Position numbers and translations under genes: made by a program
The notes under the pieces: model-generated
Databases searched by the model: none
The model's input: only the letters and a program-made list of their open reading frames with translations
Told to the model about the DNA's origin: nothing
DNA from: Clostridia bacterium
GTDB lineage: Bacteria > Bacillota > Clostridia > Christensenellales > CAG-1252
Direction of reading: 5' to 3'
Assembly (NCBI GenBank): GCA_017394805.1
Contig: JAFPXC010000020.1
Coordinates: 69,578 to 133,577, forward strand
Length of the DNA: 64,000 nt
In this document: positions 1,446 through 52,631 of the stretch, piece by piece
Layout: the number at the start of each line of letters is the position of its first letter
Position numbering within the stretch: the stretch's first letter is position 1

Positions 1446-1727
1446 GTATACGTTATGTACTGTACATTTTGTATCGTGATAACGAGTAAAACAGTAGAAG
1501 ATATACGTAACGTATAGTATTGACAAAATATATACGTTTTGTATAGGAGTTCCTATGTATATACGTTTTGTGAAGAAAACCGCGTTTGTTGTATATACGT
1601 TTTGTATAGAAACGATGCTTATAGTATGGTTTTAGACTTTTGGAAAATGGAAAAGAGTATAAATTGTATAGTTTGCTATGAAATTATACAAAACGTATAG
1701 TCGTAGACTGCTGTACGTTTTGCATGT
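1446..1727. repeat. Cluster of about 9 copies of the palindromic motif (C)TRTAC-N5-GTAYA(G), locus 1
   Basis: Sites at 1447-1461, 1460-1476, 1501-1517, 1530-1546, 1560-1574 (degenerate), 1593-1609, 1684-1700 and 1711-1727, plus a right half-site at 1666-1671. The 18-mer TATATACGTTTTGTATAG is identical at 1529-1546 and 1592-1609, with a 15/18 copy at 1558-1575. The cluster lies between the divergent yhhQ and oxidoreductase promoters. Confidence 0.85.
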
Positions 1728-1778
1728 AATCCCCGCGGACGATTAACTGTCCTCGTACGCGCACGCGCTAAAAGCGTC

Positions 1779-1806
1779 TTGACTTTTTTGCAAAATATAC
1801 TATAAT
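1779..1806 (+). promoter_or_regulatory. Putative sigma-A promoter of the oxidoreductase/carbonic anhydrase pair
   Basis: TTGACT - 16 nt - TATAAT. The ATG at 1825 lies 18 nt after the -10, so the leader is very short and has only a weak AGG. Confidence 0.5.
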
Positions 1807-1824
1807 AATATCAGGTATACCGTT

Positions 1825-3138
1825 ATGAGCAAGATTATCGTAGTTGGATTGGGGCACGGCGGGTTGATTGCCGCCGCGAAATTGGCCGAATCGGGCCACG
1901 AAGTCGTTATCTTCGAGAAGCGTTTGCCGCACGAGATTGGGCACGAATGGGAAGATAGATTCGACTTCGACCTCTTGGCGCGGATAATCGGCAAGGATAT
2001 CGCGGACTTCCCCGAGGGGAGTTGGCGGTATAGGGGAGATTGCACCTTCGTCAGCCCCGACAAGCGTACCGTGATAGACGTGCATTTTGCGAAAGACAAG
2101 CGGCAAAAAATCATGTGGCGCAAGCCGCTGATCGGGATGCTCGTCGACTACGCCCGCAGCAAAGGCGTGGAGATACGCTACCAAACGGAAGTCTCCGCGC
2201 CCGTTGTCAAGGACGGCAAGGTGGTCGGCGTCATCGTCGAGGGCGAAAAGGCGTATGCCGACCTCGTCGTTGACGCGTCGGGCGTATTCTCCGTCCTGCG
2301 CAAACAACTCCCCGACGATTGGGGAATAGAGAAAGAGCCGACGCGCGGCGACGTGTTCTACGCCAACCGCGCCTATTACGCTCGAGTCGACGGATACCCC
2401 ACCCCCGTCGTTCCTTTCGAGATCTACTTGATACACGAGGGCGAGCAGGGGCTGTCGTGGCTATGCACCAACGAGGACTCGGTGGACGTGTTGATCGGTC
2501 GCGTTTATCCCATAGACGAGGCCAAAGTAGAGGAACAACTGCGCATTTTCCGCGCGTCGCACCCGTGGCTCGGCGAGAAAGTACGGTGCGGCGGCAACTT
2601 TGCCGTCATTCCCGTGCGCAGGCCCTTGACGCGCATGGTGGGCGAGGGGTATGCCGCCGTGGGTGATTCGGCTTTTATGACCACGCCGATGAACGGTATG
2701 GGCATCGACTTGTCCCTACGAGCGGGGGAGATATTGGCCGAGAGCATAGGCGAAAAGGGCGTGACGATAGACGCCTTGTGGGCGTATAACCGCAAGTACC
2801 TCGCCACGGTGGGTGCCGCGGCCGCCAAGAACGAGGGGCTCAAAAACGCCTTGCTCAATCTACCGCCCGAGGGCGTGGATTTCTTGTACGAAAGCGGCGT
2901 CGTCGAGGCGGAAGACCTATCGGGCGGCGGCAAAAATATGACCTTTCGGCGGCTTATGCGCAAGTTGATACACGGTATGAAACGCCCCAAATACTTCTTC
3001 GCCATCGTCAAAGGGCTGATGAAAGGCGGCAAAATGACCAAATTGTATGCAAATCCGCCGCAAAACTTCGACTGCGAGGCCATCGCCGAATGGTCGCGTA
3101 AGATCGAGCAAAACGTCGTGAAAGTGGAGGAAAGATGA
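1825..3138 (+). CDS. FAD-dependent oxidoreductase (geranylgeranyl-reductase / phytoene-desaturase-like fold)
   Basis: 437 aa. The N-terminal sequence IIVVGLGHGGLIAAAKLAESGHEVVIFEKR is a GxGxxG-x17-E dinucleotide-binding motif. A GDSA-type FAD motif (AAVGDSAF) lies near residue 290. Confidence 0.75.
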   Translation: MSKIIVVGLGHGGLIAAAKLAESGHEVVIFEKRLPHEIGHEWEDRFDFDLLARIIGKDIADFPEGSWRYRGDCTFVSPDKRTVIDVHFAKDKRQKIMWRKPLIGMLVDYARSKGVEIRYQTEVSAPVVKDGKVVGVIVEGEKAYADLVVDASGVFSVLRKQLPDDWGIEKEPTRGDVFYANRAYYARVDGYPTPVVPFEIYLIHEGEQGLSWLCTNEDSVDVLIGRVYPIDEAKVEEQLRIFRASHPWLGEKVRCGGNFAVIPVRRPLTRMVGEGYAAVGDSAFMTTPMNGMGIDLSLRAGEILAESIGEKGVTIDALWAYNRKYLATVGAAAAKNEGLKNALLNLPPEGVDFLYESGVVEAEDLSGGGKNMTFRRLMRKLIHGMKRPKYFFAIVKGLMKGGKMTKLYANPPQNFDCEAIAEWSRKIEQNVVKVEER

Positions 3139-3668
3139 ATCAAATAGATATTTTGGAGCGGTTGTGGGAAGGCAACCGCGAATACGTCAAGAGCGGTAGG
3201 TACAAAGGGAACGTGGGCGAAAGTTTGCGCTCGTCGCTGGCCGCCAAACAAAGCCCGTTGGCCGTGGTCGTGACTTGCTCGGACTCTCGCGTGGTGCCCG
3301 AGGTGATTTTCGGCGCGGATTTGGGCGAGTTGTTCGTCGTTCGCGTGGCGGGCAACGTGCTGGGCGACGTTGAGTTGGCTAGTATCGAATACGCCACGGC
3401 GCATTTGGGCGTCAAAGTCGTCGTCGTGCTTGGGCATACCGCGTGCGGGGCAATCGCCGCCGCCATAGCGGGGGAGGAAGAAGGCCTCGTGGGGACGATA
3501 ACCGCGCCCATTCGCAAAATCATCGCAGGCGAGCAAAACGCCTACAAAGCCGCCGTTAAAAACGTCGTCTATCAGGTAGGCGTTGTCGAAGAGACCTTTG
3601 GCGAAGCGAACGTGGAAGCGGTCGGCGCCATATACGACGTGTCCAAGGGCACGATTGAGTTTTTGTAA
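3135..3668 (+). CDS. Beta-class carbonic anhydrase
   Basis: 177 aa with the zinc ligand motifs CSDSRV and HTACGA. ATGA start/stop overlap with the upstream oxidoreductase gene. Confidence 0.85.
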   Translation: MNQIDILERLWEGNREYVKSGRYKGNVGESLRSSLAAKQSPLAVVVTCSDSRVVPEVIFGADLGELFVVRVAGNVLGDVELASIEYATAHLGVKVVVVLGHTACGAIAAAIAGEEEGLVGTITAPIRKIIAGEQNAYKAAVKNVVYQVGVVEETFGEANVEAVGAIYDVSKGTIEFL

Positions 3669-3699
3669 ATTATAACCTTGTTAAAAGGAGGATTTATCT

Positions 3700-5286
3700 A
3701 TGAAAAAAATAGGCATAGTTACGCTAATTGCCATCACGCTGTGCCTCGTGCTGGCGTTCACGGCTTGTACGCCTACGCCTGCGTCCAAAGTGTTCGATGC
3801 AAAGAAGTTCGACACTTCGGTGAATACGAAAGTGTTGACGCAGGCCGTCAAAGTGACCGAATTGGACGGGTATTCGTTGAATAATCGCGCCAACGGATTG
3901 ATGTTGTTCAGCAAAATCAACGGCACCAAAAACGAGTATATTGTGTACGACGCCGTAGCCGAACGCGTCGTAAAGGCCTATTCGGAGGATACCAACGTTA
4001 AATACGCAATTACGCTGCAGTCGGTCAATTTCGTCGACGGTGTGTTCTATGTATTGCGCACGCGTACCGGTGCGACGGAAGCCGAATATTCGTATAAATA
4101 CGAGTTGATCGAGGCAAACGGCGAGACCGTCGCCGAGCAAACGACAGACTATGTGATTGACAACGTAATAAACGTTCGTGCGGACGTCATCCTGTTTGAT
4201 AATACGCTGTATCGCATCGGCGGCGATAATAAAATCGACAAAATCAAAGAGTTGAACGATTTGACCGGCGTTATTCCCAATTTCGACAGCAAGCGGAACG
4301 GCTGTTACTACGACTTCGATGGCGATAAATTTACCGTTTACGACGAGGATTTCGACGTGATCTACTATTATGAGGCACCCAACTACGCCACGAATCCCAA
4401 CTTCAACGTGTTGGATAACGGCAATGTGCTGACTACCTATTCGATACCGAAAATGGATACGGACAACAAGTACGTTTATATCCAAGTGCAAAACAACGCC
4501 GCCAAGAAATACGACCTGCGTCAGTTGGTCATCAACCCCAAAAAGGGCAAAATATCTCAGTTGGAGAATAAATATTATATCGCGTTTGCCTCGTCGCGCT
4601 ACGAGGACGACGGCGAAGACGTTTTCAATGGGCTCAACAAAAAATACGTCAACGTGGCCTGCATCTATCCCATCGAAGACGGGTATCTCAAAAACAACAA
4701 TTCGGACTCTATAATCGTGAGCATAGGCAACGACGGCTTGCCGGGGGATATCCTCAACGCGACCATCGAGGGCGAGCAAGGCTTTGAGTGCATCTCCAAG
4801 GATAGAGTCATCATCAACGACTGGTTCGGCAATAGTTATTTGTGCAACTACAAGGGAAAGGTCATCGGCAAAGTGACGAACAAAATCGGCTATAACGAAA
4901 CCTTCGTCATCGGTGCCGAAAACGTGTACGATATGGACCTCAAAGTGGTGTGCGCCTATGCGAAAGCGGGGTACGACTACGAGTTCTGCTTGGGCAACAG
5001 CGTTGTGCTGAGTAAGGAAGTAGACGGCAAGGTGCAGTATAAACGCTTGACTGCCGATAGCGTTTTGCACGATCTTTGCGACGATAGCGCGAACTTTACC
5101 AGACAAAGCGCGTATTATTCGGTGCGTAAGAACATCGGCAAATACGAACTGTATAACTGCGACAGCGATTTGATCTGGACGGCGGAAAGCCCGATTTCCG
5201 TGTATGCGGATACGTGGGGCGCAAGACAATACGGTCTTGTCAAGGTAAACGAGAGTGGCAGCAACGTATATTATATCTTGCATTAA
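3700..5286 (+). CDS. Lipoprotein of unknown function
   Basis: 528 aa. AAAGGAGG SD 8 nt upstream. Signal peptide MKKIGIVTLIAITLCLVLAFTAC with the lipobox LAFTAC. N/K/Y/D-rich mature part with no catalytic motif that I recognise. Confidence 0.75.
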   Translation: MKKIGIVTLIAITLCLVLAFTACTPTPASKVFDAKKFDTSVNTKVLTQAVKVTELDGYSLNNRANGLMLFSKINGTKNEYIVYDAVAERVVKAYSEDTNVKYAITLQSVNFVDGVFYVLRTRTGATEAEYSYKYELIEANGETVAEQTTDYVIDNVINVRADVILFDNTLYRIGGDNKIDKIKELNDLTGVIPNFDSKRNGCYYDFDGDKFTVYDEDFDVIYYYEAPNYATNPNFNVLDNGNVLTTYSIPKMDTDNKYVYIQVQNNAAKKYDLRQLVINPKKGKISQLENKYYIAFASSRYEDDGEDVFNGLNKKYVNVACIYPIEDGYLKNNNSDSIIVSIGNDGLPGDILNATIEGEQGFECISKDRVIINDWFGNSYLCNYKGKVIGKVTNKIGYNETFVIGAENVYDMDLKVVCAYAKAGYDYEFCLGNSVVLSKEVDGKVQYKRLTADSVLHDLCDDSANFTRQSAYYSVRKNIGKYELYNCDSDLIWTAESPISVYADTWGARQYGLVKVNESGSNVYYILH

Positions 5287-5320
5287 GCCGTAGCAACCGA
5301 TACCCCCTAGCGGTATGCAC

Positions 5321-5361
5321 AAAAAAAACGCTTCTTCTCTTGGCGGAAGAAGCGTTTTTTA
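5321..5361. terminator. Bidirectional intrinsic terminator between convergent genes
   Basis: A8 run, stem ACGCTTCTTC (5328-5337) / GAAGAAGCGT (5346-5355), then a T6 run. Confidence 0.8.
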
Positions 5362-5373
5362 TGCGCTGCAAAA

Positions 5374-7077
5374 TCAGTTGAGTTTGGCTGAGAAGTCCGC
5401 GATGCCCGCGTTGACGGCCTGCATCACCTTGGCCACCGTGCCCTCGCGGAAGGGGTTGTCGAGGTGCGCCAAATCGAGAAGGGCAAAGTAGCCGCGACTG
5501 CCGCCCGCGCGGCACAGGGCGAGATAGTCCGTCCACGCCGTTTGGTGGTCGGCGCGGTCTTTGGCGAAGAATTGGAACGCGCACACTTGCGCCAAGGCGT
5601 AGTCCACGTAGTAGAATGGGTAGAGGAAGATATGCTGTTTTTGCATCCAGAAGCCGCCCTCTGCGAGGAACTCGTTGCCGTCGTAGTCACGCCAAGGCAG
5701 GTATTTTTGCTCTATCTCGTGCCATACGGCGCGGCGCTCTTTGGCGGTCATTGCGGGCTTCTCGAATACGCGGTGCTGGAACTCGTCCACCGACACCAGG
5801 TAGGGAATGCAGGTGAGGGCGCCGACGAGGTGCGCGTAGCGGTATTTGTCCGCCGCTTCTTTTCCGAAGAACTTGTCCGCATAGGGGTAGGCGAAGTGCT
5901 CCATCGACATGGAGTGTATCTCGTCCACTTCGCTGGTTGACCACACCATTTCGCTGAGGGGTTGCGTTTTGGCGGCCGTATAGGCCTCGAACGCGTGCCC
6001 CGCTTCGTGCGTCAAAACGTCCACGTCGGCCGAGGTGCCGTTGAAGTTGGAGAAGATGAAGGGCGCGCCCAACGAGCCGAGGAAGGTGCAGTAGCCGCCC
6101 ATATGTTTGTTGGGGCGAGTCTCCAGATCGAACAATTCGTAGTCGCACATAAACTTGAAAAACTCCGCCGTTTCGGGGGAGAGCGCTTGATAGAACTCGA
6201 GCGCTTTGCCTACCAAAACGTCCTTGCCGCCGATGGGATTTGCGTTGCCGTCGGGGAAGAGGAGTTCTTCGTCGTAGTAGCGCAATTTGTCTACGCCCAG
6301 CCGTTTGGCTTGTTCGGCGTGCAGACGGGCGCACACGGGCACGATCTCGTCGCGCACTTGGTCGCGGAAGGCGGCCACGTCTTTGGCGGTGTAGTCGTAG
6401 CGCTCGCGTTGCAGATAGATATAGTCGATATAACTGTCAAAGCCCAACGCTTGCGCTTTTTTGACGCGCAGCGCCACCAACTTGTCGTAGATGGCGTCCA
6501 ACTTGTCCGAAATGCTCTCGTACAAGGCCGCCCATTTCTCAAAGGCCTCTTTGCGCTCGGCGCGGTCGGTCGAATTCATGTGTTTGAGTAGACCGTAGAA
6601 GTTGCACGTTTCGCCGCGGAAATCGCACGACGCCATGGCCGCCGTCTTGGAATACTCTCGCCCGAGTTTTTCCTCGCGGATCATCATGGGGACGATTTTG
6701 GCGTTCATCAGTTTGAGTGAGGTCTCGAGGTTTTTGACCACCAAGTCGCTGTAACGCTCGGCAAGCGCGCCGACGTAGGGGGAGGCCACGACGGCTTTGT
6801 TGAACTTCTTCATTTTGAGTTGCAGTTTGGCGGCGAAGCCGTCCAAAAACTCCATCTCGCCCTCGTAGAACTTGTCGCTCATATCCATCGTGTTGCGGAT
6901 AGAGGCCACGGTGAACATGGTTTCGATTTCTTTACCTTGGCGATCCACGTCGGCGTAGATGCGGCACAATTCGTTGCCCGATTTGACTTTTTTGACTTGC
7001 TTGATGGCTTCGTCGAGTTGGGCGTAGAGAGCCGCTTCGTCGGGGCGCACGTATTTGATTTCGCTGAATTTTTGCAT
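5374..7077 (-). CDS. pepF: Oligoendopeptidase F (M3B metallopeptidase)
   Basis: 567 aa from the ATG at 7077 (TAAGGAGATAACT upstream). HEAGHAF zinc motif. The ORF-track entry 5374..7527 carries a spurious 150-aa N-terminal extension across the upstream terminator. Confidence 0.85.
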   Translation of the reverse strand: MQKFSEIKYVRPDEAALYAQLDEAIKQVKKVKSGNELCRIYADVDRQGKEIETMFTVASIRNTMDMSDKFYEGEMEFLDGFAAKLQLKMKKFNKAVVASPYVGALAERYSDLVVKNLETSLKLMNAKIVPMMIREEKLGREYSKTAAMASCDFRGETCNFYGLLKHMNSTDRAERKEAFEKWAALYESISDKLDAIYDKLVALRVKKAQALGFDSYIDYIYLQRERYDYTAKDVAAFRDQVRDEIVPVCARLHAEQAKRLGVDKLRYYDEELLFPDGNANPIGGKDVLVGKALEFYQALSPETAEFFKFMCDYELFDLETRPNKHMGGYCTFLGSLGAPFIFSNFNGTSADVDVLTHEAGHAFEAYTAAKTQPLSEMVWSTSEVDEIHSMSMEHFAYPYADKFFGKEAADKYRYAHLVGALTCIPYLVSVDEFQHRVFEKPAMTAKERRAVWHEIEQKYLPWRDYDGNEFLAEGGFWMQKQHIFLYPFYYVDYALAQVCAFQFFAKDRADHQTAWTDYLALCRAGGSRGYFALLDLAHLDNPFREGTVAKVMQAVNAGIADFSAKLN

Positions 7078-7248
7078 AGTTATCTCCTTATAGTTGTATA
7101 TGAAAACCATATCATATTTTGACGAATTAGTCAACAATGGCGGCGCATCTTTTTGCTCGTATAGCGCGAACTGCCGCTTACGCTTCGGCTTGACCTGACG
7201 ATCACGGACGAATGCGCGGTTTACAGACGAATTGAAAGAGTAAAGCAC

Positions 7249-7963: not shown

Positions 7964-8084
7964 AGATAGACTGTGTATTCAATTAAAACTGAATAATAAT
8001 CCGCATTTAGTCGACGAATACCGACAAATAAGTTCCGACACGAGGCATATTGTAATGTTTTTCAAAATAATTTGCAAAAAGTAA

Positions 8085-8113
8085 TTGCTTTTTGGGACGA
8101 TGTGGTTTATAAT
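8085..8113 (+). promoter_or_regulatory. Putative sigma-A promoter of the tRNA-Ala gene
   Basis: TTGCTT - 17 nt - TATAAT, 18 nt upstream of the mature tRNA 5' end. Confidence 0.55.
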
Positions 8114-8392: not shown

Positions 8393-10078
8393 ATGGTAAG
8401 GCATCTATTATATTCGCAGGATAACATTACACTGATATTTAGTCTTGCATTTATTATTTGGTTTGTCATTCTTTTGATCGTGCGTAAACCGGTCGGAGAT
8501 AACGCCGTAAAAGCAAAGGTATGGATAGGTCTGTGCTTCGTTCCGCTTGCGGCGGCAATAATTCATTTCTTCTTGTATTCGTTCGGCGACGCGGTGCTGC
8601 CCTTGTTGGCGAAATATGCGTTTATTTATGCGTCGGCCATTCTTACGGCGTTTTTCCCGCTGGTTTTTATGAAAAAGAGCAATAAACCCGTAAAAATAGT
8701 CGGTGCTACGGTTATCGGCGCAGTATGTCTCGTTTCGCTTTTTTTCTATATCGATTCGCCGGCGTCGGTCAATTACTCGAACGGAGATTTGAAGAGCGCA
8801 TACGTTTCGTTGTGCGATTATTTTGAAGAAAACTACATATTGAACGAATGGAAAAAGCCCGATTACGAAAAAATCAAAGCGGACGGCTTGCTGTTGATCG
8901 ACGAAGCCGAAAAGACGGGCGATATAACGAAATACTACGAAGCGATCGACACATTCACGTACGGCTTTTATGACGGACATATGGGTATGTCCTTCTATGA
9001 CGAAAACGATTATTTGATGACGAAGTTAAAGCAATTCAACGACTACGGACTGTCTCTCGTTACGCTGGACGACGGAACCACGATAGCCGTTGACGTGGAA
9101 GACGGGCTTGCCATAAAAAACGGCGACACGGTTACGAAATGGAACGGCGTTCCCATAGACCAAGCCGTTGAAAGCGTGCAGGTGCCGACGCCCGAGGCGG
9201 TAGCCGAAAACGAGAGGATAGAGAAGGCGTTCTGGCTGGCCGGTACGGGCGGCGAGCGCGTTGAGGTGTGCTATATCAACTCGGATAGCGAAGAAAAAAC
9301 GATTACGCTCGATAGGCTTGATTCCGCGTTGCCGAGAGCCTTGCGGGCGAGACGGCTGTTTTGGCACAATACGGATGGGGCATATTCGTATAAAATGCTC
9401 AACGACGATACGGGATATATGAAAATCAAGACGGAAGAAACCGACCGTTTTCACGATTATTTCGCCTACGTCAGCGGCAACCATATATACGCGAGAGAGA
9501 CGTTCAGACGCGACCTGCGAACGCTGAAAAAGCAGGGAATGATGAAGTTGATCGTTGACCTGAGAAACAACGGCGGCGGTTATGACGAGGTCGCAACCGC
9601 TTTTGCAAGTCTGTTTGCAAAAGAAAAAACGTACGCCTTTTCGCTCGGCATCAGAAAGAACGGCGAGTACGTCAAAACCGCCGACAGATATATTATGGCC
9701 GACGGCGAATTCGGCGACGTTGAGATACTCGTGCTTACCAATATGCGCTGTGCGTCCGCGGGTGACGGAATGGTGCTGTATATGTCAAAGCTCGACAACG
9801 TGACGATTGCGGGCTTGTCCTGCCCCTCGGGCTGCAATCAGGAATCGGGCGGCTCGATATATATGCCGAAAGGAGTGGTCGTTAATTTTCCCGTTGGCCT
9901 TGTGCTGGACGAAGAAGGAAATCCGAATATCGACGTTGATGATTCAAGGCAAAGCCGAACGCCGCTCGACGTAAAGATCCCTTTGACGAAAGAGGCGGCT
10001 CTTGCGATCTTTAACGAGGAAAACTTTGACAACGGGGAGGATTACGAACTCGAATGGGCGATCAATTATCTCAATTAA
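8393..10078 (+). CDS. Membrane-anchored S41-family (C-terminal processing / tail-specific) peptidase
   Basis: 561 aa. The N-terminal ~120 aa contain about 4 hydrophobic helices. The C-terminal part carries DLRNNGGGY and TNMRCASAGD motifs typical of S41 peptidases. SD AAGGCGGTGA. Confidence 0.78.
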   Translation: MVRHLLYSQDNITLIFSLAFIIWFVILLIVRKPVGDNAVKAKVWIGLCFVPLAAAIIHFFLYSFGDAVLPLLAKYAFIYASAILTAFFPLVFMKKSNKPVKIVGATVIGAVCLVSLFFYIDSPASVNYSNGDLKSAYVSLCDYFEENYILNEWKKPDYEKIKADGLLLIDEAEKTGDITKYYEAIDTFTYGFYDGHMGMSFYDENDYLMTKLKQFNDYGLSLVTLDDGTTIAVDVEDGLAIKNGDTVTKWNGVPIDQAVESVQVPTPEAVAENERIEKAFWLAGTGGERVEVCYINSDSEEKTITLDRLDSALPRALRARRLFWHNTDGAYSYKMLNDDTGYMKIKTEETDRFHDYFAYVSGNHIYARETFRRDLRTLKKQGMMKLIVDLRNNGGGYDEVATAFASLFAKEKTYAFSLGIRKNGEYVKTADRYIMADGEFGDVEILVLTNMRCASAGDGMVLYMSKLDNVTIAGLSCPSGCNQESGGSIYMPKGVVVNFPVGLVLDEEGNPNIDVDDSRQSRTPLDVKIPLTKEAALAIFNEENFDNGEDYELEWAINYLN

Positions 10079-21868: not shown

Positions 21869-24853
21869 TTAGATGACATAGAACTTTCTCGTTCGATAGA
21901 GTAGGGCGTACACGATTACCCATACTGGCAGCAACAGTAGCATGGCCGCGGGGTAGAACACGGGGGCGATAAGGGTGTTGATCTCGCTGATATTGGCGCC
22001 CGATTTCGGATTGAAGAAGGCGATCAGTAAGAAGATCATCATCAATATCAACGCCACCATGAACGAGGTTGCGAACGATAGTTTGAAGGAGAAGGTCGCC
22101 GGCGCGTGTCGGTCTTTGTACGCCAGATAGCGTACGCCGCAGTAGCAGGGGATAAGGAACAGCACGATGCCCGTGCATAGGTAGGGCATAAAGCCGAGCC
22201 CCGCGTATTTGTCACACACGAAGTAGCCGATGAGAATGAGCGCGACCGCCACCAGATAGACTAAGCACGAGGTGGCAAAGCGAATGCTGTTGACGTTGAT
22301 ATATTTCTGCGAATAGTACTGCACGGTATGCTGGACGACGTATTGGCGCACATCGTAGCCTTTTTTGCGCATCTCTTCGCGGAATTCGGACAGACTGCCG
22401 CATTCCTTCATCGTGATTTTGCTGTCCACGTCTTCTTGCTGTTTGGGCGCGTTGGACGAATTGAACAAGTTGTGCAAAATCGTCTTGTACGACAGGTGTT
22501 TTTCCGTTTCTTCCTGTTGCAGGTAGATTTCCAATTCGGTTTGGGGCGTGAAGATGGCGGAGTAGGACTCTCTCTTTGGCGAGATTTCTTCCTCTTTGAC
22601 CTCGGGCACTTCCTCTTCTGGCTCTTGCGGCTCCTCGGTTTTATCGTCCTCGATCAAGCCCAAAAGGCGCATAGAAGCAAGCCTTTTCTCGTGCATTTCG
22701 GGGTTTTCTTCCAATTCTTGCCGAATGTCGGCACGACTGAACGCCGTCCTGCGTTTGATTGGTTCAGGCTCGGCTTGGGCGGCCTCTTGCGATTGCTCGT
22801 ACAAGGCAAAGGTGTCGGCTTCTTCCTCTTCGGCAATGACGCGTTCCTCGTTTTTGCGGCCTTTACGCCCTTTCTGCCGCGCCTTTTTGTCTTCTTTGAC
22901 GGGCGCAACGGGCTCGTTCGATTCTTCCTCGGGCAAGGAACTATTCGCCTCTACGACGGCTTCGTCATAGGTGGATTCGGGCTGTGCTTCCGCTTGTTCC
23001 GAGGGGAGAGTAGCCTCGACGTCGGACGGAGTTTCGTCGGTTTGCGCTTCTTCTTGCGTTTCGCTATCGGCGTCGTCGGCACGAGATTCTTGTTCGGCGG
23101 GTTCTTCCGTTCGTTCGCTTGCGACCACAGGCTCTTTATAGGTTCGTTCTGCTTCGGGCACTACGGGATATTCCTCGTCGGTCGTCTCTTGTGCGGGTTC
23201 TTCCGTTGTGTCTTGGGATGGCTCGCCGAAGAGGACGTATTCGTCCATCACGGTCGAAGTCGGTTCGTAGGCGGATTCGGTCTCGACCGCGGTGGGCGTT
23301 TCGTCGTCCTCGACAACTGCTTCGAGCTCGTCGGTTTCGTTATATTCTTCGGTTATGTCTTCTTCTGCCGCTTCGTCTCGTTCGTCGACGGGTTGCTCGG
23401 CGCTTTCGGTTTCGATCGATTCGTCTTCAACGTCGGCGTTTTCGTCAACTATTTCCGCGCATATCTCGTCTTCGTCCGTATCGTCGGTATTTTCGACGAC
23501 AAAGGGCGGTTCATCGCCGTCTTCTTCGTGTTCTTCGCTATTCTCTGCGGCGATAACTTGTTCGTCTTCCGATTCTTCTTCGACTGCTTCCGTTTGGTCG
23601 CTTTCGACAGCATACGCGGCCTCGTCCGCCGTATCGTCGAATTGCTCGTCGAGCACTTCCTCGGCAACTTCGGCAGGTTCTTCCTCGTCGTTATCGTCCG
23701 ATTCTCGTTCGTCTTCGCAGACGGTTTCAGCTTGTTTGAACGGCTCGTAAGAGTAGGGCGGCTCGTATTCGCTTGCCGCTTCATCGTCTGCGCTTTCGTC
23801 TTCGTCCGTCACCTGCGCCTCTTCCGCCGTATCGTCTTCGGCGGCGTAAAGCGCTTCGTGCGCAGGCTCGTATTCTTCGTCCGATATTGCTTCCTCGTCC
23901 GTTTCTTCTTGCACGACCTCTTCTTGCTCGTCGTCGGAGGGTAGGGCGGGTTGTTCTTCGTCTTGGGCGGCTTCTTTTATTTCAGTCTCGTCTTCGTTTA
24001 TATCGTCGGCAGCTTCTTCGAAGGGCTCTTCCTTGATTTCTTCCTCGTCCGACTCGGCGAAAACTTCCTCGACTTGTTCGGCTTCTGCGGGGAGTTCGTC
24101 GGAAATTTCTTCGCATTCGACGTTGGAATCTTCCTCAGACTCGGACGAATCGTCTTCGTCAACGTCCTCGGCAGCGTCTTTCGCCGCTATTGAATCTTCT
24201 TCCGTTTCGGCGGGCTCTTCGACTTCTACGGGGCATTCTTCTTCGATTTGCGCGGAATCATCCTCGTTTTCTTGGTCATCAGCTGCGTTTTCGGTCGAAT
24301 ATTGCGCATCGGTATCCGTTTCCTGTTCGGTTAGAGATTCGTCAATGGCGATATCCGTTTCACTTTCGACTTCACTTTCGTCGGTATCGGCGGCGTCCGC
24401 TTCCGCTGCAAGTTCGGTGAACTCCTCGGCATCTTCGATTTCGAAAATCTCGAGGTTGTCTTCAAAAATGTGCAGGGTAGGCTTGCCGTCACCGAAATCA
24501 TCGGTGAGATATATCTTCTCGTTCGAAGCGCTCACCGGAGAGAGCGCCAGCGCGTCGCACAATTTGTCGATCATTTGGTCGTCCAGATTGAACATAGGCA
24601 GGTCATCGACCGAAATGCGCAGGGCAAAAAACGAGCGGTTGGGATCGGATTCTTGACAAATGCAGGCAATCAGGCAATCCAACTGCAATTCGTTGACTCT
24701 ATTGGCGACGCTCAAAGGGGAAATATGATAACGGTCCAAAAAACCGTCCAAAGACGACGTAATCTCGTAAACTGTCAACGAGGAATGCGCCAATGCGTTG
24801 AGTATGTAGGAATCCATTTGTTCCAGCAATTCATCGTATATATTATTTCCCAT
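21869..24853 (-). CDS. Hyper-acidic membrane-anchored protein: winged-helix-like N-terminal domain, ~540-aa D/E-rich disordered tract, 4-TM C-terminus
   Basis: 994-aa ORF. The N-terminal ~130 aa are globular (ILNALAHSSLTVYEITSSL... resembles a wHTH). Residues ~140-680 are roughly 40-50 percent D+E by eye, with almost no K/R. A short basic patch follows (KKARQKGRKGRKNEER). The C-terminal ~150 aa contain four long hydrophobic helices. No family recognised. Confidence 0.75.
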   Translation of the reverse strand: MGNNIYDELLEQMDSYILNALAHSSLTVYEITSSLDGFLDRYHISPLSVANRVNELQLDCLIACICQESDPNRSFFALRISVDDLPMFNLDDQMIDKLCDALALSPVSASNEKIYLTDDFGDGKPTLHIFEDNLEIFEIEDAEEFTELAAEADAADTDESEVESETDIAIDESLTEQETDTDAQYSTENAADDQENEDDSAQIEEECPVEVEEPAETEEDSIAAKDAAEDVDEDDSSESEEDSNVECEEISDELPAEAEQVEEVFAESDEEEIKEEPFEEAADDINEDETEIKEAAQDEEQPALPSDDEQEEVVQEETDEEAISDEEYEPAHEALYAAEDDTAEEAQVTDEDESADDEAASEYEPPYSYEPFKQAETVCEDERESDDNDEEEPAEVAEEVLDEQFDDTADEAAYAVESDQTEAVEEESEDEQVIAAENSEEHEEDGDEPPFVVENTDDTDEDEICAEIVDENADVEDESIETESAEQPVDERDEAAEEDITEEYNETDELEAVVEDDETPTAVETESAYEPTSTVMDEYVLFGEPSQDTTEEPAQETTDEEYPVVPEAERTYKEPVVASERTEEPAEQESRADDADSETQEEAQTDETPSDVEATLPSEQAEAQPESTYDEAVVEANSSLPEEESNEPVAPVKEDKKARQKGRKGRKNEERVIAEEEEADTFALYEQSQEAAQAEPEPIKRRTAFSRADIRQELEENPEMHEKRLASMRLLGLIEDDKTEEPQEPEEEVPEVKEEEISPKRESYSAIFTPQTELEIYLQQEETEKHLSYKTILHNLFNSSNAPKQQEDVDSKITMKECGSLSEFREEMRKKGYDVRQYVVQHTVQYYSQKYINVNSIRFATSCLVYLVAVALILIGYFVCDKYAGLGFMPYLCTGIVLFLIPCYCGVRYLAYKDRHAPATFSFKLSFATSFMVALILMMIFLLIAFFNPKSGANISEINTLIAPVFYPAAMLLLLPVWVIVYALLYRTRKFYVI

Positions 24854-24890
24854 ATAATAGTATTTTAGTACAAACGACCATAAAAGTCAA
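24854..24890 (-). promoter_or_regulatory. Putative promoter of the acidic-protein gene (leaderless or near-leaderless)
   Basis: Minus strand TTGACT - 17 nt - TAAAAT - 8 nt - ATG (24853). No SD. Confidence 0.45.
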
Positions 24891-24946
24891 TAAGAACGCA
24901 AATATTATAGGTGAGCGACCGCTAAAATGAAACGGCGGCGAAGCAC

Positions 24947-25354
24947 AATACATTATGTACGGTATGAAACGTATAGTATAATCGGCATACAAAACGTATA
25001 GTTTTATAACCATACAAAATGTATAGCAATACATACAAAATGTACAATAGCGGCAGTAATGGCGTATATGTACATTTTGTATAGTATACTGTACATTATG
25101 TATAGTTGCAAATAAAACATCAGCCATGGAAGACGGGGAGTTGGTGCGCGTGTACGTTTTGTATAGTGCGCTATACGTTATGTATAGATACACAAGTTGC
25201 TCGGTAATGACTATATGTTTTGTATATCTACGACAAATATTCATGTACAAGGATACTGTCGATCGGCTTGCCGTGTTCGCTCCGGATTGTCTGTATGTCT
25301 TCGATGAATGCCTTGTTTTTGTTTGGCGGCTATTTATTCTGTACAAAACGTACG
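24947..25354. repeat. Palindrome array, block A: at least 11 copies of CTRTAC-N5-GTAYAG
   Basis: Left half-site starts at 24947, 24986, 25011, 25032, 25069, 25090, 25151, 25172, 25212 and 25340, plus a right-half-only site at 24971. Examples: CATACAAAACGTATAG (24986-25001) and CTATACGTTATGTATAG (25171-25187). The spacer is always A/T-rich. Confidence 0.9.
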
Positions 25355-25370
25355 ATTTTGGCCAAATTTT

Positions 25371-25416
25371 GCCTATATCTTTTCGCAAAAGGCGTCTTTT
25401 GCGAAAAGATATAGGC
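25371..25416. repeat. Perfect 21-bp inverted repeat (hairpin/cruciform) in the array core
   Basis: GCCTATATCTTTTCGCAAAAG (25371-25391), loop GCGT, then CTTTTGCGAAAAGATATAGGC (25396-25416). There is no flanking U-tract on either strand. Confidence 0.9.
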
Positions 25417-25618
25417 AAAGCGCAAATTTCCCTCGTCAGAGCCCGTATATACAAAAGATAATTGCCGCCCGACACCACCGAACGGAATGGGTTGGCGTGC
25501 GTGCGCTTTCGTTCGGCCAAACTGACGGATCGCCCCTGCCCTATCGACGCAAATTTGCAAAAATCGTCAAAATTCTCCTCGGGGGAAAATACTTGCATTC
25601 GCCAAAAAACGCGCGATA

Positions 25619-26229
25619 TGTACATAATGTATAGTCAAATAAACGCCTGGTGATGGCCTATATATAATGTATACAAAATGTACAGTCAACTGTATAAAAC
25701 GTATAGATAAGAATTATTGGGACCAACATTGCATTCTGTAGATTTTATACAGCAAACTATACTAAACGTATAGATGGCAATTAAGAATGAATAGCGCGAC
25801 CTCACTCCCCCGCCCTGACCGTCCTTCAATAATCGAACTATACAAAATATATATATAACTATACATATTGTATACTATACATTTCATACAGCGTACTATA
25901 CATTATGTATATGTATATTTCGTATAGTAAATATGTCCTTACGGCTGCTTCCCGTTTTGAGCCGTCAATATTGTCCATTGTGTATGTACAAATTGTATAG
26001 ATACAAAACGTATAGGCCTATACAAAGCGTACAGTCATTCGTTTCATCGGCACGCTGTACAAAACGTATATGGTGTGTTTGAGACTATGCTATACGTTAT
26101 GTATATATACAAATTGTATAGTTTGAAACGTCGCTATACATATCGTATACATACATTTTGTATACTTGGCGTTCGTCTTGCTGAGATACGATTCTTCCGC
26201 CCGCATATTGTTACTGTATAAAACGTATA
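25619..26229. repeat. Palindrome array, block B: at least 20 copies of CTRTAC-N5-GTAYAG
   Basis: Left half-site starts at 25619, 25659, 25670, 25691, 25737, 25758, 25839, 25860, 25876, 25897, 25912, 25985, 26000, 26019, 26056, 26091, 26106, 26135, 26150 and 26215. Example: CTATACTAAACGTATAG (25757-25773). Confidence 0.9.
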
Positions 26230-26291
26230 TTATCGGTATTTTTTGTATATTCAATCATTTTAGAAAAATATGTTTTTTTATCGAAAAAGTC

Positions 26292-26320
26292 TTGCAAAAA
26301 TAACCTGTTTATGGTAGAAT
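26292..26320 (+). promoter_or_regulatory. Putative sigma-A promoter of the XRE gene
   Basis: TTGCAA - 17 nt - TAGAAT. A leader with SD GAGGTG precedes the ATG at 26347. Confidence 0.55.
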
Positions 26321-26346
26321 GAAACTACCATTTATGAGGTGCAGTA

Positions 26347-26559
26347 ATGAACAATTTTAAGTACAATCTCATAATCACCCGCAAGCGTTGCAAGTATACC
26401 CAAAAGGAGATGGCGGATATGCTTGGCGTGACCGAGGGTTGCTACGCGCACTGGGAACAAGGGCGGAATGAGCCGAGCATCGCTTATATCATTCAGCTTT
26501 GCAAACTGTTACACGTTACGTCGGACGAGCTGCTGGGTGTCAACAATGACGAGAACTAA
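26347..26559 (+). CDS. XRE-family helix-turn-helix transcriptional regulator
   Basis: 70 aa. YTQKEMADMLGVTEGCYAHWEQGRNEPS is a classic Cro/C1-type HTH. Confidence 0.82.
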   Translation: MNNFKYNLIITRKRCKYTQKEMADMLGVTEGCYAHWEQGRNEPSIAYIIQLCKLLHVTSDELLGVNNDEN

Positions 26560-26581: not shown

Positions 26582-26609
26582 TTTGCTTAAAATCTTTTCG
26601 CAAAAATTA

Positions 26610-26644: not shown

Positions 26645-27700
26645 ATGGACAATTACTTTCAAAACCGCGATATCGAAAACACGAAGAAGCTGAGCGCGCT
26701 ACGCAAGCAACTGCCGCCCTACTGCGGCAAGTATTTCGTCGCCATTTCTTCGGTCACGACGGCTTTGACGAGATTGGGCTACGCACGCGATTTGCTCATA
26801 TTCTTCAACTACCTCTGCTCTACCGGTCAATTCGGCATGTGCACACCCCCCGAGTTCGATATCGACCGTCTCAACGCCGTAACGCAATCGGACATCGAGG
26901 CCTATCTCGATTATCTGTCCAATTACGAGGTGGACGGCAAAATATACGTCAATAAATTGAGCGCCATGTCGCGCAAACTGTCCGCCGTGCGCTCTCTCTT
27001 CAAATATCTGTATAACAAGGACTTGTTGCACGAAAACGTTTCCGCCAAGGTGCTGACGCCCAAACTGCACGAAAAGGAAATCATTAGGCTGGAGTCGGAC
27101 GAAATGCAGCGCTTTATGGACGTGGTGGAACGCGGCGACAATCTGGGCGAGGGGCATCAATCGGCCTACCACAAAAACGTCGCCCTGCGCGATATGGCCA
27201 TCACTACCCTACTGCTCGGCACGGGCATTCGTATCAGCGAATGCGTCGGCCTCAACGTGGACGACCTGGACTTCGACAACCGCAAATTCGTCGTGACGAG
27301 GAAAGGCGGCAGTCGCTCCATATTGTATATGCCCCAAGAGGTGATCGACGCGTTGCAGGCCTACCTCAGCGTACGTTTGGCCATTCCCACAGATACCGAC
27401 GCCTTGTTTTTGTCCCTGCAAAACAGGCGTATCAACGTGCGTACCGTGCAGATTATGGTGCGAAAATACGCCGCGGCCGCCGTGCCGACGAAGCATATCA
27501 CGCCGCACAAATTGCGCTCTACGTTCGGTACCAATCTATATAGAGAAACCAAAGATATTTATGTCGTGGCCACCGTACTCGGCCATAGCGACGTGAATAC
27601 GACCAAAAAACACTACGCCGCCATCAGCGAAGATATCAAAAAGCAGGCGGCAGAGGTCGTGCGCTTGCGCCCCTCGGACGGCGACGATACGCACGAATAA
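26645..27700 (+). CDS. Tyrosine site-specific recombinase, XerC/XerD-like
   Basis: 351 aa. N-terminal SAM-like core-binding domain. The catalytic residues sit in their usual context (GTGIRISE; HKLRSTFGT; LGHSDVNTTKKHYA). Confidence 0.9.
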   Translation: MDNYFQNRDIENTKKLSALRKQLPPYCGKYFVAISSVTTALTRLGYARDLLIFFNYLCSTGQFGMCTPPEFDIDRLNAVTQSDIEAYLDYLSNYEVDGKIYVNKLSAMSRKLSAVRSLFKYLYNKDLLHENVSAKVLTPKLHEKEIIRLESDEMQRFMDVVERGDNLGEGHQSAYHKNVALRDMAITTLLLGTGIRISECVGLNVDDLDFDNRKFVVTRKGGSRSILYMPQEVIDALQAYLSVRLAIPTDTDALFLSLQNRRINVRTVQIMVRKYAAAAVPTKHITPHKLRSTFGTNLYRETKDIYVVATVLGHSDVNTTKKHYAAISEDIKKQAAEVVRLRPSDGDDTHE

Positions 27701-27706
27701 CGCAGT

Positions 27707-27901
27707 CTATTTTTTCGATTTATTGTTGGGAACAACGACGCTGTCGATCAAAACGCCGTTGTAGTCCGCCATATCCAAGCATTTCATGCAGTTATCACAG
27801 CGCTTCGTGGGATCCAGATCGCACATATCGCAAGCGCCGCAATCGTCGCAAATAACGCCTTTGACCAAAATACATTCCTTGCCGACGTTGGGATTAGTCA
27901 T
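27707..27901 (-). CDS. Small cysteine-rich protein, 2 x [C-x7-C-x2-C-x2-C]
   Basis: 64 aa. GGAGG lies 7 nt upstream of the ATG. 8-nt overlap with the upstream ynbB-like gene. Eight Cys at positions 10, 18, 21, 24, 27, 35, 38 and 41 form an internal duplication. Confidence 0.6.
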   Translation of the reverse strand: MTNPNVGKECILVKGVICDDCGACDMCDLDPTKRCDNCMKCLDMADYNGVLIDSVVVPNNKSKK

Positions 27902-52584: not shown

Positions 52585-52631
52585 CTATACAAATTGTATA
52601 TTTTTGACCAATTTCTATACGCTTCGTATAG
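52585..52631. repeat. Two copies of the CTATAC-N5-GTATA(G) palindrome, locus 3
   Basis: CTATACAAATTGTATAT (52585-52601) and CTATACGCTTCGTATAG (52615-52631). They lie about 50-100 bp upstream of the hrcA promoter. Confidence 0.8.

Follow-up and report, generated by a model that had tools for sequence, protein, structure and literature searches.

A predicted membrane-anchored PadR-type protein with a long acidic linker, encoded near a XerS-like recombinase and a dif-like site in Clostridia

Single-recombinase Xer systems are described as having two parts, a recombinase and its site. The gamma winged helix of FtsK reads the FtsK-orienting polar sequences (KOPS) and activates Xer. We know of no organizer or membrane tether of the terminus region in Firmicutes. 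Here we describe a gene of a Clostridia bacterium, located at positions 21869-24853 of a 64,000-nucleotide (nt) stretch of contig JAFPXC010000020.1 (the window, meaning the whole stretch of DNA that was analysed). Its product of 994 amino acids (aa) has a predicted winged-helix head, a very long acidic tract and four transmembrane (TM) helices, and we refer to the gene as the head-4TM gene. In its neighbourhood were a gene for a XerS-like tyrosine recombinase and a palindrome that is probably a dif-like site. The initial annotation of this DNA had missed both, and with them the main context of the gene. Our favoured explanation, held tentatively and at somewhat less than an even chance, is that the protein physically couples the dif/Xer locus, or the Xer nucleoprotein complex formed there, to the cytoplasmic membrane.

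A site next to its own recombinase gene is a hallmark of the single-recombinase XerS and XerH modules (PMC1914069, PMC5357621). The locus resembled XerS/difSL and XerH/difH in having a recombinase of ~350 aa with XerS as best match, a difSL-like palindromic site by its gene, and apparently converging sequence polarity. It differed in its membrane-anchored third partner and its flanking accessory palindrome arrays, neither of which has been described for XerS/XerH modules. The window site, with its 6-bp spacer, is perfectly palindromic; difSL is not symmetric, and its central region has 11 bp according to a review.

With FtsK, the window protein shares a four-TM anchor, a very long low-complexity linker, a winged helix and a putative functional tie to Xer/dif (PMC3870252, PMC5357621). 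Its domains are in the opposite order, it has neither an ATPase motor nor sequence homology, and its linker is acidic, not Pro/Gln-rich. RocS of Streptococcus pneumoniae, RicO of Staphylococcus aureus, Noc and RacA are similar in layout, with an N-terminal DNA-binding fold, a disordered middle and a membrane-association element at the other end. Bridges of the RocS/RicO type, from DNA to membrane or to the cell pole, bind clustered chromosomal sites (bioRxiv 10.64898/2026.03.06.710092). The heads of these four proteins are of MerR or ParB type, and the proteins use coiled coils together with an amphipathic helix or DivIVA. Their place of action is near the origin and not at the terminus, and they are without a hyperacidic tract or an integral 4-TM domain. 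In place of the MerR-type head, coiled coil and amphipathic helix of RocS and RicO, the window protein had a PadR-type head and four TM helices, and the resemblance is functional only.

HubP/FimV is a further parallel, as a membrane-anchored, very large and highly acidic cytoplasmic interaction platform that affects chromosome positioning (PMC8789113). HubP combines a periplasmic LysM domain with a single TM helix, acidic repeats and a TPR end; the window protein had no LysM or other Pfam domain, four TM helices and no repeats in its tract. Regulators of the BcrR type also combine an N-terminal helix-turn-helix (HTH) domain with four C-terminal TM helices in one polypeptide. BcrR itself has an XRE-type HTH, essentially no linker and about 200 aa, and is tied to bacitracin resistance genes. 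A membrane-tethered DNA-binding fold is a known kind of protein. Three things appear new: the conserved linkage of such a protein to a Xer module with one recombinase, the extreme polyanionic character of the linker and, in the window's clade, a dif-like site flanked by arrays. In a literature search we found no paper that links PadR proteins to Xer, or that describes a XerS-like module in Clostridia.

The open reading frame (ORF) list, composition and hydropathy bore out the 994-aa ORF with head, acidic tract and 4-TM tail. From N to C terminus the protein had a globular N-domain, an acidic tract, a basic patch and four TM helices, and the gene and its parts were:

21869-24853, minus strand: whole gene, 994 codons plus stop, ATG start (ORF list)
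24449-24853, minus strand: N-domain, residues 1-135 (AlphaFold2, Foldseek, PDB profile matches, hhalign)
22814-24448, minus strand: acidic, presumably disordered linker, residues 136-680 (composition)
22853-22888, minus strand: basic patch KKARQKGRKGRK, residues 656-667, inside the tract end (sequence)
22652-22753, minus strand: conserved linker island, residues 701-734, RRTAFSRADIRQELEENPEMHEKRLASMRLLGLI (alignments and sequences)
22289-22576, minus strand: conserved, predicted cytoplasmic juxtamembrane domain, residues ~760-855, SEFREEMRKKGYDVRQYVVQHTVQYYSQKY (family alignments)
21902-22288, minus strand: four TM helices, residues 856-984 (hydropathy, positive-inside distribution, conserved in 220 representative clusters)
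21872-21901, minus strand: short basic C-tail after the TM helices (sequence)
24862-24890, minus strand: promoter-like site TTGACT-17-TAAAAT (sequence; same layout in locus L003, about 8075-8108)
22328-23944, plus strand: opposite-strand 538-aa ORF, a shadow of the GAA/GAG-rich coding strand

The N-domain comprised a PadR-type winged helix (about residues 1-80) and an extra alpha/beta subdomain (about 85-135) carrying a conserved DLP(I/M)F-LDD motif. AlphaFold2 (AF2) modelling of the head from its single sequence was uninformative (predicted local distance difference test score, pLDDT, of 54), and the run with an 18-sequence alignment was used (pLDDT 93, predicted template modelling score 0.86). 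This model had helices at residues 4-23, 28-38 and 46-58 and strands at 62-66 and 75-78, with 46-58 as the recognition helix and 62-78 as the wing. The HTH-like stretch previously pointed out, SYILNALAHSSLTVYEITSSL (residues 15-35), fell elsewhere, from helix 1 to helix 2.

Several comparisons agreed on the fold class and upheld the earlier call of a winged-HTH-like head. The best Foldseek matches of the head in the PDB were winged-HTH repressors, namely ZitR/MarR, BlaI, the Bacillus subtilis PadR-DNA complex 5x11 and LmrR. A profile of 18 divergent heads, built without any canonical PadR heads, had PadR-family proteins as its first PDB matches, i.e., Pex (E = 3e-4), 4esf and AphA; the PDB profile matches spanned E = 3e-4 to 5e-3. 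By hhalign, window-type heads aligned with the canonical PadR heads of the family with 89% probability (E = 2e-6, 82 columns). From these alignments and the model, the window head is predicted to be a degenerate PadR-type winged helix. Its fold and element order are those of the PadR family (PF03551; B. subtilis PadR, LmrR, Pex, AphA). Known PadR proteins are soluble and have 100-180 aa, whereas the window protein adds a linker of ~640 aa and a 4-TM domain.

The head also departs from the PadR family in sequence. A Pfam scan gave no match to the window protein or its N-domain at E <= 1, so the PF03551 gathering score was not reached. In its 85-aa core the head had 4 lysines plus arginines (K+R) and a net charge of -9, against an average of 12.4 K+R and +0.7 in canonical relatives; the mean K+R was 5.7 in the close and 6.9 in the mid array-bearing clades. 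The canonical residues tested were K47, Q48, T50, Y52, R57 and R77, in the numbering of canonical-head alignment A5. According to hhalign, the invariant recognition residues K47, Q48, Y52 and R57 were replaced in the window head, and of the canonical recognition-helix and wing residues only the wing arginine (R73) was kept. Because of the acidic core and the loss of these residues, DNA binding by the window head is possible but uncertain.

In the acidic tract (residues 136-680), 228 of 545 residues were D or E (41.8%) and 20 were K or R (3.7%), for a net charge of -208. The first 50 residues noted before as acidic (140-189) indeed lacked K and R entirely, with 21 D/E, one fewer than originally counted. 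Tandem Repeats Finder detected in the tract just trivial 2-copy repeats of 8-12 nt, so the tract is no recent repeat expansion. The basic patch, previously placed after the tract, exists and lies inside its end. Similar patches were present in L001, L003 and the family members P0007, P0009 and P0012, and absent from P0003-P0006, so the patch is not a family-wide feature. The core of the linker island, (K/R)xxxAxxxLG(L/I) (KRLASMRLLGL in the window protein), recurred in many family members. About 640 residues separated the head from the conserved C-terminal core, which consists of the juxtamembrane domain, the most conserved soluble part of the head-linker-4TM family, and the 4-TM module.

Hydrophobic segments were found at about residues 856-878, 885-907, 922-945 and 958-984. 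K and R clustered ahead of TM1, in the stretch joining TM2 to TM3, and in the C-tail, a distribution that is consistent with an N-in/C-in topology and would place head and tract in the cytoplasm. The initial annotation's picture of a membrane-tethered head on a polyanionic linker is thus a fair description, with a predicted 4-TM anchor.

Homologs shared the N- and C-domains in the minus-strand frame only. The frame stayed open across non-alignable acidic tracts of differing length, with both end domains conserved, in many species, and the identical 994-aa sequence was found on 7 contigs, for which the sources listed included at least two metagenome samples. This conservation shows that the 994-codon ORF is a real gene. 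As claimed before, its promoter abuts the array of 17-bp palindromes: the TTGACT-17-TAAAAT site runs from 24890 to 24862 (minus strand) and the first 17-mer-like site is at about 24948. The -10 hexamer ended 8 nt before the ATG (6-8 nt when L003 is included), and there was no Shine-Dalgarno sequence. Judging by this short distance, the mRNA is probably leaderless in the window's clade. The gene of the distant locus L008 had a normal Shine-Dalgarno sequence.

In L001 (about 1090-1185), the homolog was split by a frameshift directly after the basic patch, and the near-identical L003 was intact. The frameshift is probably an assembly error or a strain-level pseudogene.

With Pfam and NCBIfam, no significant match was obtained for the whole protein, the head or the tail. 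A word-indexed homolog search found one relative for the tail, one identical fragment for the head, and none for a 16-sequence C-domain alignment. An exhaustive profile search with the C-terminal 314 residues, in which hits are cluster representatives at 50% identity, retrieved 220 representatives at E <= 1e-3, 99 at <= 1e-10 and 23 at <= 1e-30. The earlier statement that no characterised family has this architecture therefore holds insofar as no curated family covers the protein, but the protein is not an orphan.

The proteins matching the C-domain profile had lengths from about 115 to 1123 aa, and in the full-length members listed the match was at, or a few residues from, the C-terminus. The whole architecture was common to the close clade P0003-P0012. 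Distant members (P0022, P0025, P0027, P0030 and others) had a canonical N-terminal Pfam PadR domain, with PF03551 scores of 58-76 bits for these four against a cut-off of 27. An iterative search inside the family set linked the window head to 119 of 152 N-termini, and the unlinked ones were mostly short or N-terminally truncated. Across the family the linker ranged from about 80 to about 780 residues and from 12% to 39% D+E, the window protein being the most acidic member; homologous linkers were conserved in composition and not in sequence or length. The C-domain profile had no relative in the PDB or Pfam. We propose, from these profile searches, that head, variable linker and conserved 4-TM C-domain define a Clostridia family previously without annotation.

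The genes and sites that surround the head-4TM gene were, in the window:

26645-27700, plus strand: 351-aa XerS-like tyrosine recombinase (Pfam Phage_integrase plus a SAM-like N-domain)
26347-26559, plus strand: 70-aa XRE/HTH_3 protein (Pfam HTH_3, E = 4e-12)
25368-25419: perfect palindrome with 24-nt arms, in the centre of the intergenic region
25380-25407: dif-like core TTTTCGCAAAA-GGCGTC-TTTTGCGAAAA (arms conserved across loci)
24948-25230: left cluster of 17-bp palindromes (CTATAC-N5-GTATAG type)
25619-26250: right cluster of 17-bp palindromes

The order was head-4TM gene, its upstream region (24854-26346), XRE gene and recombinase gene. The best NCBIfam match of the recombinase was XerS, with 196 bits; this is below the equivalog cut-off of 267, so we call it XerS-like and not XerS. 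We compared 12 loci, with heads ranging from 71% identity to the window's down to canonical PadR. In 11 of them (the window, L003, L006, L007, L008, L009, L010, L011, L012, L013 and L017) a recombinase of ~350 aa adjoined the head-4TM gene. The recombinases of the other ten loci were 47-64% identical to the window's. Gene order was divergent in the window, L003, L006, L008 and L011, and tandem in L007, L009, L012, L013 and L017; in L010 a Rep-encoding insertion of about 5.5 kb parted the two genes. The chromosomal contexts were of three kinds, with recR-ybaB-dnaX together with ynbB-miaA-mutL-mutS, with rnhA-proC, and others.

A dif-like core was found in eight loci, which make up most of those whose intergenic DNA was available, in the window and at:

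L003, 7584-7611
L006, 9186-9213
L007, 7360-7387
L008, 7865-7892
L012, 3481-3508
L010 and L011

There was one site per locus, except in L011, which had three. The pattern was T[AT]TTCG[CT]AAAA-N6-TTTT[GA]CGAA[AT]A. Its 11-bp arms were conserved and its 6-bp spacer was variable, as expected of the core site of a tyrosine recombinase. The arms resembled the difSL arms TTTCCGAAAA and TTTTCTTGAAA (PMC5357621). The palindrome is probably a dif-like site.

The octamer GGGNAGGG, the Escherichia coli KOPS consensus, occurred 10 times in the window, against 4.4 expected, and all 10 copies were consistent in polarity. Left of the dif-like site 4 of 4 were on the plus strand, and right of it 6 of 6 on the minus strand:

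426, 13852, 18813 and 23939, plus strand: GGGNAGGG copies
25534, 29545, 34674, 37692, 60328 and 62491, minus strand: GGGNAGGG copies
23939-25541: polarity flip interval, which brackets the dif-like site (last plus copy 23939-23946, first minus copy 25534-25541)

The flip is confined to 1.6 kb. In related loci, several of them closely related to each other, 14 of 17 copies were consistent. The GC skew of the 64-kb window was +0.06 to +0.13 up to 22 kb, then about 0 or negative. We infer that the locus is a XerS-like dimer-resolution module at or near the terminus.

In the window there were 22 exact matches to TRTAC-N5-GTAYA, against 0.06 expected, and 15 of them fell into the left and right clusters around the dif-like site. 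L003, L006 and L007 likewise had clusters to either side of the palindrome. The XRE protein strictly co-occurred with the arrays, being present in 4 of 4 array loci and 0 of 7 array-less loci. It was very highly conserved, with an HTH region nearly invariant by eye across the four array loci. The heads encoded in these loci were just 17-40% identical and their recognition helices differed (SPLSVANRVNELQ vs SEQSIDHVLDALY), while the 17-mer motif was the same. Given this strict co-occurrence and conservation, set against divergent heads with one motif, the XRE protein is the better candidate binder of the 17-mers.

Small TATAC-N5-GTATA clusters were also seen at about 1440-1720, upstream of a FAD-oxidoreductase gene (1825-3138), and at 52586-52630, upstream of the hrcA-grpE-dnaK operon. 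These dispersed clusters suggest that the 17-mer binder acts at more than one place.

Other identities of the array region were considered. Rfam and tRNA scans (21-28 kb and 20-29 kb) found nothing, which ruled out a known RNA family or a tRNA-linked att site. Iterons of a plasmid or of an integrative and conjugative element, or a mobile island, were rejected because the module had no rep gene, contained or adjoined housekeeping genes, and lay in conserved chromosomal synteny in several divergent genomes, with recR-ybaB-dnaX on one side and ynbB-miaA-mutL-mutS on the other. A 260-aa ORF at 24843-25625 (minus strand), over the left array and the dif-like site, is covered by a public gene call (L014, 256-1011); no equivalent of it exists in L003 or L006, and it is probably spurious.

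Further observations concern the site in single loci. A single dif-like arm lay just upstream of the -35 hexamer of the window recombinase promoter (26595-26605). Single arms upstream of the recombinase gene were found in five loci, i.e., the window, L003 (about 6466), L006 (about 7463), L007 (8632-8657, a tail-to-tail pair) and L009 (about 6655), and may be autoregulatory binding sites. The three copies in L011 (5127-5154, 5413-5440 and 5799-5826; one perfect, two degenerate) were within 700 bp of intergenic region. The insertion in L010 (about 1634-7188) encoded a rolling-circle Rep (REP_ORF2-G2P) and unassigned ORFs, had degenerate dif-like sites at its borders and looks like an IMEX, an element exploiting Xer; it is at most an indirect hint of recombination at the site. 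The intergenic region between recombinase and head-4TM gene in L013 (1490-2040) had no dif-like site with the pattern used and held several copies of another motif (TTAAACGC / TAACG), which may be a lineage-specific array.

By the recombinase gene there was also a conserved, cysteine-rich ORF of 64-69 aa (C..C.DCG.C.MC...PTK.CDNCM.CL), in the window at 27707-27901 (minus strand), in L006 at 5972-6181 and in L007 at 9758-9964. It had no Pfam match, and in L007, probably also in L017, it was located between the recombinase and the head-4TM gene. Elsewhere in the window, two large ORFs had no Pfam or NCBIfam match, one of 898 aa (52806-55502, minus strand) and one of 528 aa (3700-5286, plus strand).

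In the coupling that we favour, the cytoplasmic PadR-type head would hang on the polyanionic tract from the juxtamembrane and 4-TM anchor. The acidic linker would be a long spacer without affinity for DNA or the anionic membrane, and would stay extended because both repel it. It may also offer basic partners a surface on which to dock, as HubP does. In the window's clade the XRE protein would more probably bind the 17-mer arrays that flank the dif-like site, and the acid-drifted head could contact DNA weakly, or a protein partner (XRE or recombinase). A more specific scheme, which we offer as speculation and think unlikely in full, is that Clostridia with a single XerS-like recombinase use a motor-less head-linker-4TM protein that is dedicated to bringing the dif-Xer complex to the membrane or septum, or to licensing it there. 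In the acidic clade, about 35 XRE-bound 17-mers would wrap dif, and the head would dock there and not on naked DNA.

Several results weigh against a membrane coupling of the dif/Xer locus. The recombinase scored under the XerS equivalog cut-off, and the distant member L016 had no recombinase within about 3-4 kb. The adjacency to the recombinase gene would be equally expected of a local transcription factor. The head in the window's clade is acidic (4 K+R) and without the canonical recognition residues. The change in GC skew is asymmetric, its right side being near zero rather than clearly negative, and gene orientation on the left side is mixed.

The main competing explanation, a realistic one to which we give a clearly minor share of the probability, is a membrane-bound one-component transcription factor (BcrR/ToxR/CadC-like) or a factor released by proteolysis. 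The PadR head would control the xer-(lexA/XRE) genes and its own promoter, the 4-TM/juxtamembrane module would sense a signal from the membrane or envelope, and the linker would be a mere spacer. PadR proteins as a rule repress locally, the head is intact and its recognition helix invariant in the canonical members of the family, and a divergent or tandem order with the recombinase and lexA genes is the usual layout of regulator and target; the conserved C-domain could be a sensor. However, a box scan and a search for shared 8-mers revealed no PadR box (ATGT-N8-ACAT) or shared operator upstream of the family genes. A housekeeping dimer-resolution recombinase is also not an obvious target for a regulator of membrane signals, linkers of 300-780 residues are hard to explain in a simple regulator, and the head in the window's clade has lost the canonical recognition residues.

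The initial annotation had considered the head as the binder of the 17-bp palindromes, through which it would tether the array to the membrane or pole, with a logic like that of RacA/ram, which would extend to the dispersed clusters. We regard this as improbable. The array was directly upstream in all four close homologs (window, L003, L006 and L007), the fold is a winged HTH with remaining arginines (R41, R53, R73 and R79) in or near the HTH and wing, and one helical turn separates the half-sites of the palindrome, a spacing that suits a dimer. However, one identical motif goes with heads that have diverged down to their recognition helices, the head core has a net charge of -9 with 4 K+R, and the XRE protein is the conserved companion of the arrays. 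The distant homologs also speak against it, as arrays were absent from all seven loci with canonical heads. Homologs lacking an array, which the initial annotation had named as a refutation, thus exist among the distant members and not among the four close ones.

An effector linked to the SOS response or to division is very unlikely. Membrane division inhibitors are encoded next to lexA in other Gram-positives (YneA, SosA and ChiZ), the window protein is membrane-anchored, and lexA belonged to the same cluster in L008 and L012. We marked this explanation down because a scan for LexA boxes (GAAC-N4-GTTC) found none upstream of the family genes, the sole box preceding lexA itself in L008. Moreover, the cluster had no lexA in the window's clade, and the known inhibitors are small, single-TM proteins without a DNA-binding fold.

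That function resides in the acidic tract (as DNA mimic, anti-repressor decoy or cation buffer), with head and tail as accessories, or that the ORF is not a real gene, is least probable of all: the net charge of -208 is extreme and acidic modules can, on the example of HubP, serve as platforms that bind partners (PMC8789113), but linker acidity varies in the family and the head and C-domain are the conserved parts, we found no supporting evidence for the decoy, anti-sigma or cation-buffer roles suggested earlier, and an ORF with intact end domains in many species and an identical sequence on 7 contigs is hardly a chance frame.

A conserved membrane-anchored winged-helix partner at a dif-like site would add a player to dimer resolution and segregation. 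Under the more specific scheme for Clostridia with a single XerS-like recombinase, the protein would be a third part of a Xer system and, in Firmicutes, the first tether between chromosome and membrane on the terminus side. The family (220 representatives at 50% identity, the linkage being seen in 11 of 12 loci) is spread over a large group of anaerobes from gut and rumen, and its loci are a testable handle on the coupling of terminus and envelope. Its tethers, spanning 80 to 780 residues and 12% to 39% D/E, also form a natural series of lengths and charges for studying the working of disordered polyanionic linkers that join DNA and membrane.

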